A stretch of 24,000 nucleotides of DNA from an uncultured Massilia sp. (lineage in GTDB: Bacteria > Pseudomonadota > Gammaproteobacteria > Burkholderiales > Burkholderiaceae_D): positions 5,600 through 29,599 of the forward strand of contig CBIHOW010000046.1 in NCBI GenBank assembly GCA_966211695.1, written 5' to 3'. Positions 5,978 to 7,988 of this stretch are shown here, one piece after another. A program made the position numbers and the translations under genes. How positions within the stretch are numbered: the stretch's first letter is position 1; each line of letters starts with the position of its first letter. The notes below the pieces were generated by a model. The model saw nothing but the letters and a program-made list of their open reading frames with translations. It made no database searches and had not been told where the DNA came from.

Positions 5978-5986
5978 TGTTAACTC

Positions 5987-6466
5987 TTAAGTAGGGCAAT
6001 GATCTGGACAAAGCTGCTTCACAGCGATTTTTGTTTGATTAAGCAGCTCTTTCGCTTCATCCCAGTCAGTATCAAGCGCGTTATATATATCTGCTCCAGT
6101 TGCTACGGCTAACGCAGCAAATTTTCTATCACTTTTGTCTAGTTTATTTTCTGGCAACTCGGCGAAGCCACGTTTTTCATCGTCAATAGCCGTGATGGCA
6201 GCAACCAAAACTTTTTTTCCTAAATACATGTTGTCATGAAGGTATTTGAAAAATTGGTCGCCCACCCCGGGTGCGCCTCGATGTGAAAGATGTCTGCTGT
6301 ACTCGTCAAGTATAACCCCCGCATCATCAACCGCTACGCGGTTTTTTGATGAAGGAGAAATTAATGCTTGAAGAAATTCGATGCAGTTCAGCTGGCATTT
6401 CAGACTTGCATGCGTATCTATCCCATTGGCAGCAATCGCGACATTTGTGTCTACAATTACTTTCAT
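5987..6466 (-). CDS. PIN-like nuclease domain protein (159 aa), putative effector
   Basis: The N-terminus MKVIVDTNVAIAANG matches the PIN beta1 strand with its first acidic residue. Further acidic positions occur in AVDDAGVILDEY and AIDDEK. The C-terminal part DRKFAALAVATGADIYNALDTDWDE resembles the PIN D..(A).A......l.T.D.D motif. Codon usage is AT-rich. The start codon overlaps the stop of the upstream ATPase gene (ATGA at 6463-6466). Confidence 0.7.
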   Translation of the reverse strand: MKVIVDTNVAIAANGIDTHASLKCQLNCIEFLQALISPSSKNRVAVDDAGVILDEYSRHLSHRGAPGVGDQFFKYLHDNMYLGKKVLVAAITAIDDEKRGFAELPENKLDKSDRKFAALAVATGADIYNALDTDWDEAKELLNQTKIAVKQLCPDHCPT

Positions 6467-7842
6467 TGTGCCGCCATTTCCATCTTTCTTTTGATAATGG
6501 CCTTGCGTGTCTCCGCAATTTCCGTCATCTCGTCACCAAAGAAATCTTGCGGCCAGTTTTTAATTTGTCCGAATATGTCTATGTCCAGATCGCAAAGTTT
6601 GGATTTTCCTTCATGGCTCTCGCAAAAATAAAGTCTCATATCAGACGCCGGATAAGATTTTTCTGCAACTCGTCTCTGAAAACGACGCAGCAAATGCTCA
6701 CTGTGGCTCTCAATAATAACCTGAAGATTGCGAGATTTTGCTACGGTAAGAATAACATCAGCAAGACCACTTTGTACGGAAGGGTGCAAGTGTATCTCGG
6801 GTTGCTCCATAAGTATGGTGCTTCCTTCTGGAACATAGTATAACAACACTAATGCGGGGAGAACTTGAGAGACACCGAAGCCTACGTCCGTCAATAATGC
6901 CTGAGCACTTTTGCTGTCTCGCTTAACCATCGCACGGTACAAGTTGGCCCCGGATCCAATTTCTTCTATTTTAAATTCATGAATTAGTCGAAGTTCCTTT
7001 AGCCAATAAGCGATCATCTCTTGAAATGGCTTATGAGGCGAACGATAGCGTAAATTCCGGGTTTCGTTCCGTGCTGTTGCTGAGAGTATTGCTTCGATAG
7101 TTCGCTCACCTCGTAACCCTACATCTACCGGACTCGTGCCAGACCACGGGTACTCTCGTTTAGGGTATTCCCGAAGCGGCCCGAGATAATAAATGGAGTC
7201 CATCATGGACTCATACTCCGATTCAAATAAGCTGAGAAACTCAGCATTTTGATAATATGTTTTCGCTTGATCAGGGAATAGATGTGTTTTGATAGGGCCA
7301 GGTAGTGCCCATGCGCGCTGTTTGTTTCTTACGAAGCGAAAGTCCGAATCCTTAGGCTCGGTTGAGCTTAATTGGAATTCTGTGCTGCCGGCTTTTTTAG
7401 GGGCAATGGAAAACGTGTAGCCGCCAAAGCCGTATTTTAGTGAGTCAGAAAAAAGAAGATTTGCTTGCTGATGCGTGTGCGCAACAGATTCTATTGATAA
7501 GCTGGAGTCGGTTGCAAGCACATCGGTTCTCTTTTTGGTTGGGTCTGATATGCTAGTCTTTTGCGGCAATGTCCAATCAATTTTCCATTTTAGACTTTCG
7601 TCGGTTTTATGCGCATGGATCACATCTCGGTAACTTCCAAGGTTTACCAGTTGTCCAGGTCCGCCAAAATCGAGTACGATGCCACGATCAGTCGCATTCT
7701 TCGTTTGTTTTAGCATCAGTAAGAATTGAAGTAAGCTACTTTTTCCTGAGCTATTAGTTCCGAAGAGGCCTACAACTCGTCCAAACTCAATATCTAGATT
7801 TTTCCAAGCTTTGAAGTTTTGTACATGAAGGTGGGTTAACAT
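6463..7842 (-). CDS. ABC-type AAA_15/AAA_21 ATPase with DUF3696-like C-terminus, putative sensor/regulator
   Basis: Motifs in order: Walker A GLFGTNSSGKSS, YYLGPLREYPKREY, a signature-like TDVGFGVSQVLPAL loop, Walker B STILMEQPEIHLHP, H-loop IIESHSEHLL, and a WPQDFFGDE tail. The ATG at 7842 gives the family-typical N-terminus MLTHLHVQNFKAW. The ORF track's alternative start is a GTG at 7857 with no Shine-Dalgarno sequence. Confidence 0.85.
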   Translation of the reverse strand: MLTHLHVQNFKAWKNLDIEFGRVVGLFGTNSSGKSSLLQFLLMLKQTKNATDRGIVLDFGGPGQLVNLGSYRDVIHAHKTDESLKWKIDWTLPQKTSISDPTKKRTDVLATDSSLSIESVAHTHQQANLLFSDSLKYGFGGYTFSIAPKKAGSTEFQLSSTEPKDSDFRFVRNKQRAWALPGPIKTHLFPDQAKTYYQNAEFLSLFESEYESMMDSIYYLGPLREYPKREYPWSGTSPVDVGLRGERTIEAILSATARNETRNLRYRSPHKPFQEMIAYWLKELRLIHEFKIEEIGSGANLYRAMVKRDSKSAQALLTDVGFGVSQVLPALVLLYYVPEGSTILMEQPEIHLHPSVQSGLADVILTVAKSRNLQVIIESHSEHLLRRFQRRVAEKSYPASDMRLYFCESHEGKSKLCDLDIDIFGQIKNWPQDFFGDEMTEIAETRKAIIKRKMEMAAQ

Positions 7843-7960
7843 AAGTTTTCTCGCCACTTCGCAAATAAAGATGTTGTCAGTTCTGTGAAGTGTACCTGCC
7901 GTACTAGACTAAGAGCAATGCAAAATCTCGCCGACAGCACCTGTGATTAGCTGTCAGTAA

Positions 7961-7988
7961 AACAGGTCATCTTGGAAACAGGTCATCT
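7961..7988. repeat. 12 bp direct repeat (aacaggtcatct, 7961-7972 and 7977-7988) spanning the cassette/rpoC-fragment junction
   Basis: The sequence reads aacaggtcatct-tgga-aacaggtcatct. The last 6 nt (tcatct, 7983-7988) are also the first 6 nt of the duplicated rpoC segment (4541-4546). Confidence 0.8.

Follow-up and report, generated by a model that had tools for sequence, protein, structure and literature searches.

An ABC ATPase–PIN pair of the HEC-03 type forms a probable two-gene anti-phage islet beside rpoC in an uncultured Massilia

We analyzed a 24,000-nucleotide (nt) stretch of DNA from an uncultured Massilia sp. (contig CBIHOW010000046.1, positions 5,600 to 29,599; hereafter the window). 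It carries a two-gene cassette of the HEC-03 (Hma-embedded candidate 3) type, encoding an ATP-binding cassette (ABC) ATPase and a small PIN-fold protein. A first-pass annotation of this DNA had described an AT-rich two-gene block of about 2.0 kb on the minus strand. Both open reading frames (ORFs) were indeed found, and the G+C content (GC) across positions 6000–7999 is 0.43–0.47 compared with 0.60–0.69 in both flanks. The islet consists of the two genes and an insertion sequence (IS); minus the IS, it is the two genes alone, in about 2.0 kb. The features of the cassette are as follows.

6463..7842, minus strand: HEC-03 ABC ATPase of 459 amino acids (aa), OLD/AAA_15-type, with a C-terminal DUF3696 helix
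5987..6466, minus strand: HEC-03 PIN-fold protein, putative RNase effector, 159-aa ORF
6463..6466, minus strand: ATGA stop/start overlap of the ATPase and PIN genes, translational coupling, read directly in the sequence
7843..7982, minus strand: AT-rich leader, presumed promoter region of the cassette, reaching the junction with an rpoC fragment

HEC-03 is known from a preprint as the pairing of an ABC ATPase with a PIN protein (Payne et al., bioRxiv 10.1101/2024.01.29.577857). Both proteins of the window match PADLOC models of this system. The ATPase aligns to PDLC04148 (3.1e-243) with residues 6–463 on profile positions 1–457 of 458, and the small protein aligns to PDLC04147 (7.8e-71) with residues 1–157 on positions 1–155 of 159. 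The tested representative comes from Pseudomonas cichorii ATCC 10857 (WP_025259138/WP_025259137; 10.1101/2024.01.29.577857). Against its sequences in Table S2, identity is 68% across 398 aa for the window ATPase and 55% across 153 aa for the PIN protein. Because both PADLOC models are matched at full length and the pair shows this identity to the tested one, the cassette is, by its sequence, HEC-03, a system already named in PADLOC-DB and tested in E. coli; the pair itself is not new. The full ATPase ORF spans 6463–7857 (minus strand, 464 aa) from a GTG at 7857. The ATG at 7842, which gives 459 aa, is the likely start, since alignments to both the tested HEC-03 ATPase and the PADLOC profile begin at residue 6.

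With P. cichorii HEC-03 expressed in E. coli, plaque formation by two or more phages fell by orders of magnitude, and both genes were required for defense (10.1101/2024.01.29.577857). The same pair was toxic upon induction with isopropyl β-D-1-thiogalactopyranoside (IPTG); the main text of the preprint mentions no ligase, tRNA, or abortive infection (10.1101/2024.01.29.577857). The first-pass annotation had proposed an uncharacterized defense system. Its defense part stands, as the orthologue protects E. coli, and its uncharacterized, unnamed part does not, given the two PADLOC matches. Likewise, its statement that an ABC ATPase paired with a free-standing PIN protein is not a named system is refuted by the match to HEC-03. 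Names of the components clash between sources. In the preprint the ATPase is HEC-03A and the PIN protein HEC-03B (10.1101/2024.01.29.577857); PADLOC-DB v2.0.0 has the labels reversed, the 159-position PIN model being HEC-03A and the 458-position ATPase model HEC-03B.

The window cassette resembles described HEC-03 in that a DUF3696 ABC ATPase gene precedes and overlaps the gene of a PIN protein of about 160 aa, in the ATPase start, and in the arrangement of the genes, which are adjacent and co-directional with the ATPase first. It differs in its setting. The Massilia copy is free-standing between rpoC and a PhyH/curli region, with a duplicated rpoC 3′ end and an IS beside it, and the embedding in Hma or another multigene defense locus, which is the discovery context and not a detection criterion, is not seen in the window. 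The host here is a Massilia-like betaproteobacterium, and the Massilia copy is known from sequence.

The domain calls of the first-pass annotation for the ATPase were reproduced in Pfam (AAA_15, 4.7e-24; AAA_21, 2.3e-17; DUF3696, 7e-9) and are those of an OLD-type enzyme. The translation contains GTNSSGKS, YYLGPLREYPKREY, TDVGFGVSQVLP, ILMEQPEIHLHP, ESHSEHLL, and WPQDFFGDE; all motifs quoted earlier for either protein are present. The next-best PADLOC matches were Menshen NsnB (1.1e-63), PDC-M55A (2.4e-51), and PARIS AriA (2.9e-27). A predicted model of the ATPase (predicted local distance difference test, pLDDT, 73.6) was compared by Foldseek, and the best matches (E values of 1e-11 to 1e-8) were Gabija GajA, an OLD nuclease from Thermus, PtuA of retron and Septu systems, and the heads of SMC/Rad50 proteins. 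Outside the Walker B/H-loop region, no solved structure is related to it at the sequence level.

Across the ATPase family, the Walker B motif (residues 345–354) carries an invariant E-Q-P-E where D-E-P-E is usual in OLD-type ATPases, and the signature motif (residues 319–326) reads G-F-G-V-S-Q. The natural "EQ" Walker B suggests a slow-hydrolysing ATP switch. Another stretch, residues ~219–245 (YLGPLR...P.R.Y.W.G..P..VG..G), is invariant in the family, yet it lies where the model is least confident (pLDDT below 50 at residues 223–241). This invariant, low-confidence stretch could be a functional loop for binding of the partner or of the trigger.

The small protein gave a single Pfam match, sub-threshold, to PIN_3 (E 0.036; 15.3 bits against a cutoff of 27). 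Its translation contains MKVIVDTNV and DRKFAALAVATGADIYNALDTDWDE. The AlphaFold2 model (mean pLDDT 88.5; predicted template modelling score, pTM, 0.85) has the secondary-structure order beta-alpha-alpha-beta-alpha-alpha-beta-alpha-beta. In a Foldseek search of the PDB, its best matches were all PIN/VapC folds (probability up to 1.0, E ~1e-3, template modelling (TM) scores 0.42–0.58), among them M. tuberculosis VapC complexes, AF0591, PAE0151, SSO1118, VapC20, Nmd4, PRORP, and SMG6. Comparison of the PIN-family profile with PDB chain sequences returned nothing meaningful (best E 0.8). We conclude from the predicted model that the small protein is a divergent PIN fold, visible by fold comparison alone, in agreement with the stand-alone PIN-fold protein called by the first-pass annotation. 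The family has at least 570 members in a 90%-clustered database and comprises 1,265 clusters at E ≤ 1e-3 in a 50%-clustered library.

The PIN-family alignment comprised 37 members, and residue conservation was counted over 82 sequences. Position D6 is Asp in 77 and Glu in 4; D47, E55, D70, and D113 are invariant; and D132 is Asp in 80. In the model, the acidic residues occupy four places: where beta1 ends, where beta2 ends and in the helix that follows it, where the helix behind beta3 begins, and immediately past beta4. These four places are the canonical acidic positions of the PIN topology. By secondary-structure placement, the conserved acidic residues would thus occupy the PIN catalytic positions. 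C24, C28, and C153 are also invariant and the last cysteine, C157, nearly so, in the pattern C-x3-C ... C-P-x-H-(G)-C, which includes H156; the pattern is not usual in VapC-type PIN domains. The four-cysteine motif is probably a metal site; zinc may be bound there, or the cysteines may form a disulphide clamp that ties the C terminus to helix 2.

To survey the pairing of the two genes, we used 80 genomic loci taken from one-genome-per-species contigs, plus others retrieved by exact look-ups. An ATPase homologue lies directly upstream of the PIN homologue, on the same strand, in 84/84 loci. The pairing goes far beyond chance, and the recurrence that the first-pass annotation proposed to look for is borne out. 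The coupling it had read from the ATGA overlap at 6463–6466 recurs as well. The 4-nt overlap is kept in 52/81 loci, and an overlap of 1–14 nt occurs in 71/81. Conservation is higher in the ATPase (95%) than in the PIN protein (78%). Hosts include Beta-, Gamma-, and Alphaproteobacteria, Acidobacteriota, Binatia, Latescibacterota, Cyanobacteria, Spirochaetia, Thermodesulfobacteriota, and Dehalococcoidia, and in nearly every locus the GC of the pair is below that of its flanks. An apparently missing PIN gene in two metagenome contigs proved to be an annotation gap, the ORF there being 100% intact. Among phages, only partial matches of ~36% identity were found, in Klebsiella phages.

The settings of the pair vary. 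In two loci (L029, L030) it has a DrmD/HmaA-like SNF2 helicase (3.9e-198) on one side and a type III-like methyltransferase plus restriction enzyme on the other, which is the embedded context that the discoverers of HEC-03 described. In five Methylococcales loci (L011, L018, L022, L048, and L083) the pair is inserted in the cytochrome c maturation cluster, where ccmE and ccmF flank it; these five loci have no flanking repeats and no mobility genes.

Clustering of the flanking ORFs revealed a conserved gene directly 3′ of the PIN gene and on the same strand, which matches Pfam RNA_ligase (PF09414, 2.8e-20). According to tblastn, the ligase is present in 34/79 genomic loci, essentially one clade of the PIN tree. 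The window and Massilia aerilata belong to the ligase-less clade, along with the other members from Beta/Gammaproteobacteria, Methylococcales, and cyanobacteria. Ligase motifs are kept: TEKLDG (the adenylation lysine, KxDG), LYGED, EGVVIR (EGxxxR), and CKSVR (KxxR). Examples of the gene are the following.

L042:10475-11149, plus strand: RNA ligase gene, example, PF09414-type, directly after the PIN gene
L090:5428-6129; L091:6927-7619; L092:4964-5563: plasmid ligase genes, after the PIN-like gene

Plasmid-borne relatives, conjugative in Aeromonas and Rhodococcus and mobilizable in Azotobacter, have ATPases that are ~40% identical. In all three examined, the gene order is a DUF3696 ATPase, an overlapping protein of 169–177 aa, and an annotated RNA ligase family protein. 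PADLOC recognizes the HEC-03 ATPase in these plasmids (1.1e-133) and their small proteins (3e-23 to 9e-28), and has no model for the ligase gene; the 177-aa protein of Aeromonas is related to the PIN family according to hhalign (probability 99.5%). As the ligase occurs in the divergent plasmid branch as well as in one of the two main clades, its loss in the clade of the window is the more parsimonious reading. On an Acinetobacter soli plasmid (CP119212; L093, record 54850-62173), the third gene encodes an HNH endonuclease, with no RNA ligase in its place; the ATPase there has a frameshift, and an N6 DNA methylase lies next to the locus. Matelska et al. 2017 (PMC5499597) cite an earlier proposal in which RNA ligases neutralize linked nucleases in some PIN_3 operons. 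The ligase partnership in HEC-03 relatives itself looks unreported in the searchable literature, although an earlier description of the triad is possible.

The window cassette lies just downstream of rpoC, between two copies of the 3′ end of that gene. The features of the insertion site are listed below.

589-4836, plus strand: intact rpoC, ORF
4541..4899, plus strand: direct repeat copy 1, the last 296 nt of rpoC and the terminator, from repeat alignment; the repeat runs a few bases past the IS
4868..4899, no strand assigned: rpoC terminator hairpin with an A-run and a T-run, from the sequence (inverted repeat)
4900..5969, plus strand: IS1595-family IS with 19-nt inverted ends (4900-4918, 5951-5969) and matches to DDE_Tnp_IS1595 and a helix-turn-helix domain
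7960..7991, plus strand: 16-nt tandem duplication AAACAGGTCATCT(T/C)GG, straddling the junction between the islet and rpoC-fragment copy 2
7983..8350, plus strand: direct repeat copy 2, an orphan rpoC 3′ fragment (86-aa ORF 8018-8278) and a second terminator

The two repeats (4541–4907 vs 7983–8350) are 98.4% identical, and 100% identical over the coding part of ~300 nt. This direct repeat of the rpoC 3′ end, the low GC, and the IS1595-family element substantiate the foreign base composition, adjacent IS, and insertion scar of the first-pass annotation. The IS is framed by an 8-bp target-site duplication, TTTTTTAT, at 4892–4899 and 5970–5977, and its transposase frame (4976–5935) contains one in-frame stop codon. 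Since it is inserted within the T-run of the terminator, the IS appears to be a later, secondary arrival. Before that, the terminator lay ~10 nt from the PIN stop codon; it is possibly bidirectional and would then serve the cassette too. At the other junction, the second unit of the 16-nt duplication overlaps the rpoC sequence TCATCTCGG by 9 nt. Since the duplication has TCATCT in common with rpoC sequence, it could be a footprint of microhomology. Independent metagenome assemblies that are 99.5–99.9% identical to the window confirm the cassette–IS–rpoC join; their contigs break inside the repeat, as a repeat is expected to make assemblies do.

Massilia aerilata KACC 12505 has the same arrangement at its rpoC, with a 383-nt repeat of 96.6% identity (L005 8138-8520, 11326-11708). 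In both genomes the repeats end directly after the terminator. Their inner edges are 13 nt apart between the window and M. aerilata, and the adjoining islet sequence is unrelated. The slot of the window's IS, between the PIN gene and rpoC, is filled in M. aerilata by a gene for a 224-aa protein (L001 8580-9254, minus strand) without a Pfam or PADLOC match. A relationship of this protein to the RNA ligases was ruled out (hhalign probability 0.3), and no remnant of the ligase or of the 224-aa gene was found in the window.

The alleles differ far more than their surroundings. The rpoC genes of the window and M. aerilata are 94% identical, with 44/400 codons synonymously different. Within the cassettes (5987-7842 vs L005 8625-10480), the ATPase genes share 81% of nucleotides, with 220/460 codons showing synonymous and 22 non-synonymous differences. 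The PIN genes share 71% of nucleotides and, of 160 codons, 73 differ synonymously and 36 non-synonymously. Judged by these codons, the ATPase is under strong purifying selection and the PIN gene is much less constrained. The cassette alleles, being far more diverged than rpoC, are much older than the split of the hosts, which points to repeated acquisition or allele exchange at the rpoC site.

No integrase was found in the islet of the window or in that of M. aerilata, and the window holds no tRNA, tmRNA, or Rfam element as an attachment site. The islet may have entered by Campbell-type homologous integration of a circle on which the gene fragment was carried, or else by homology-facilitated illegitimate recombination. 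Pieces of core genes, likewise duplicated, flank the cassette in two other places, thiC in a Thiobacillus (181 nt) and uvrB in a Gallionella (772 nt). In the Gallionella metagenome-assembled genome (MAG; L014 5380-11301), an island that includes two DUF488 genes is bounded by the duplicated 5′ part of uvrB (772 nt, 90% identical); a disrupted uvrB and a chimeric MAG assembly are both possible there. Direct repeats are not a general flank of HEC-03, since most of the 79 loci have none.

The neighbors of the cassette in the window are rpoC, the IS, PhyH, three tandem curlin-repeat genes, csgGFE, and metabolic genes. The HEC-03 copy thus stands outside any defense island and is not inside an Hma, DISARM, or restriction-modification locus. 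An expanded curli locus (9128–11956, minus strand, and 12404–13705) lies just past the islet; in it, the three curlin-repeat genes are tandem paralogues with ~74% nucleotide identity to one another and adjoin csgG/F/E.

We infer the following mechanism. An oligomer of the ABC ATPase would hold the small PIN protein inactive through its C-terminal DUF3696 helices, as in analogous systems. A phage cue at the ATPase inserts, together with ATP binding, would cause a conformational change by which the PIN protein is freed or activated, the EQPE Walker B motif suggesting a slow-hydrolysing switch. With Mg2+ as cofactor, the PIN protein would then act as an RNase on an essential RNA (tRNA being the likeliest), so that translation would stop and the infection would be aborted. 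In many relatives, a co-encoded RNA ligase probably reseals the damage, limiting self-harm or allowing recovery; the version in the window has no ligase gene. Metal-dependent PIN-like nucleases usually leave 5′-phosphate and 3′-OH ends, reports for VapC toxins being mixed, and such ends would be directly sealed by ATP-dependent ligases of the PF09414-like type.

Docking of the PIN protein via DUF3696 is proposed because the AlphaFold3 models of NsnB4–NsnC2 and the solved PARIS and Septu assemblies (summarised in PMC12065111) are analogous. In those AlphaFold3 models, the PIN-like domain of NsnC sits between two DUF3696 tails, and NsnB departs from the usual motifs by DE → EN and SGG → GxG (PMC12065111). 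An RNA target is proposed because the fold is VapC-like, its nearest folds being VapC tRNases/rRNases, because the recurrent partner is an RNA ligase, and because the PARIS, Septu, and P2 OLD effectors are reported as tRNases.

The cassette was also compared with other named systems, first with Menshen (NsnABC). NsnB is the nearest named relative of the ATPase outside HEC-03, although the HEC-03 model scores far higher. Both ATPases have the DUF3696 tail, an amide in place of the catalytic Glu of Walker B, and GxG for SGG, and a PIN-like fold is found both in the N terminus of NsnC and in the partner protein of the window. In contrast to Menshen, the ParB-DUF262 sensor NsnA was not found in the islet, and the window ATPase has a much larger insert (459 aa vs the 345-position NsnB profile). 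The 159-aa PIN protein stands alone, keeps its catalytic acidic residues, and is without the C-terminal nuclease toxin domain of NsnC. The NsnC model gave no match to the window proteins at E ≤ 0.1, and a look for long fusion relatives that could link the PIN family to NsnC gave, in the best 150 of 1,265 representative clusters, almost exclusively stand-alone proteins of 155–180 aa.

With PARIS and Septu the cassette shares the logic of an OLD-type ABC ATPase oligomer and a separate small nuclease effector; AriB and PtuB are themselves reported to cleave tRNA. However, the effectors of those systems are Toprim/DUF4435 (AriB) and HNH (PtuB) proteins, whereas the putative window effector is a PIN protein and no Toprim gene accompanies it. 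The AriA match of the window ATPase is partial, and outside the Walker B/H-loop region its sequence does not match the solved structures of PtuA or AriA. The best structural matches of the ATPase domain, Gabija GajA and the class 1–2 OLD proteins, have a Toprim nuclease fused to the ATPase, in place of the separate PIN protein seen here. The likeness to VapBC lies in the PIN fold, the conserved acidic quartet, and the VapC toxins as best structural matches. As the first-pass annotation had observed, no VapB-like antitoxin is present, the upstream partner being the 459-aa ATPase. The PIN protein differs from VapC also in its longer beta3–alpha insert, its conserved four-cysteine motif, and its sub-threshold Pfam PIN score.

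We consider it very probable that the cassette is an intact, horizontally acquired two-gene HEC-03 anti-phage system just downstream of rpoC, with a PIN RNase that would be restrained by the ATPase. Several points weigh against this conclusion. The defense assay was done in E. coli with an orthologue that is 55–68% identical, and not with the Massilia cassette or in its host. No account of HEC-03 biochemistry (target, trigger, stoichiometry, or role of ATP) was found in the searchable literature. A simple sigma-70 scan upstream of the ATPase gave no strong or convincing consensus match in the leader. The PIN protein is below the Pfam threshold (E 0.036), and the TM scores of its fold matches are moderate (0.42–0.58). 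The RNA target rests on context, and PIN-like domains also include DNA nucleases. Lastly, the placement of the active site is read from positions in a predicted model, and the ATPase–PIN complex is drawn from analogy.

In a first alternative, the PIN protein would cut DNA (phage DNA or replication intermediates) in the fashion of FEN/Mut7-type nucleases. The PIN-like superfamily does include DNA nucleases (PMC5499597), the nearest folds of the ATPase (GajA, OLD, and Rad50/SMC) belong to DNA-handling systems, and the third gene of the Acinetobacter soli plasmid encodes an HNH endonuclease beside a DNA methylase. We nevertheless regard a DNA target as unlikely. The best fold matches are VapC-type RNases and not FEN-like nucleases, the recurrent partner belongs to the RNA ligase family, and several OLD-class systems formerly thought to act on DNA are now reported as tRNases. 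A slightly smaller chance is given to the pair being mainly a toxin–antitoxin or addiction module, with a PIN toxin and the ATPase as a non-canonical antitoxin, that stabilizes the islet rather than senses phage. The VapC-like fold, the tight coupling of the genes, and the toxicity of induced HEC-03 in E. coli (10.1101/2024.01.29.577857) fit such a module, as do the solitary copies in housekeeping settings (rpoC here; ccmE/ccmF in Methylococcales). In the tested orthologue, however, both genes were required for defense, and a pure antitoxin is not needed for the effect of its toxin. In addition, the ATPase is conserved above the PIN protein (95% vs 78%) and has full ATP-binding motifs, unlike a passive antitoxin, and elsewhere the HEC-03 family sits in helicase/methylase defense loci.

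It is very unlikely that the PIN-like protein is a catalytically dead adaptor, as in Menshen NsnC, with toxicity coming from the ATPase or a host factor. The idea draws on the Menshen PIN-like domain, which docks to a homologous ATPase and lacks catalytic residues (PMC12065111), and on the Pfam PIN models, which barely detect the small protein. Against it, acidic residues are kept at all four canonical positions (D6 in 77/82 plus 4 Glu, D47 in 82/82, D113 in 82/82, and D132 in 80/82), and Pfam and PADLOC found no other nuclease domain in the ATPase or the PIN protein.

Beyond the ATPase-restrained PIN RNase proposed for the window, we put forward tentatively, and as doubtful, a broader idea. 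HEC-03 as now defined might be a reduced version of a wider system, mostly of three genes (ATPase, PIN RNase, and RNA ligase), giving reversible RNA-cleavage immunity with its own repair enzyme. Separately, the two-gene form might spread without an integrase by carrying and duplicating the end of a core gene (rpoC here and in M. aerilata, thiC in Thiobacillus, uvrB in Gallionella). If such integrase-free spread is true, diverged alleles would be swappable at the same chromosomal site.

For some features of the HEC-03 relatives and of the rpoC insertion site, no report was found in the searchable literature. The remaining interest of the cassette lies in the unreported-looking ligase partnership of its relatives, in the Menshen link, and in the integrase-free rpoC islet; overall it is modest, since the system is already named and validated. 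The Massilia cassette adds one more, fairly distant, natural HEC-03 allele, from an environmental betaproteobacterium, and it appears to show HEC-03 as a free-standing 2-kb unit outside defense islands. The recurrent RNA ligase partner is a concrete lead on the RNA target and on the control of self-damage. HEC-03 is linked to Menshen by the unusual Walker B and signature motifs and by the DUF3696 tail that both have, which hints at a docking mechanism common to the two. Finally, the rpoC-flanked islets point to how small defense cassettes may exchange at a core-gene site without a recombinase of their own.

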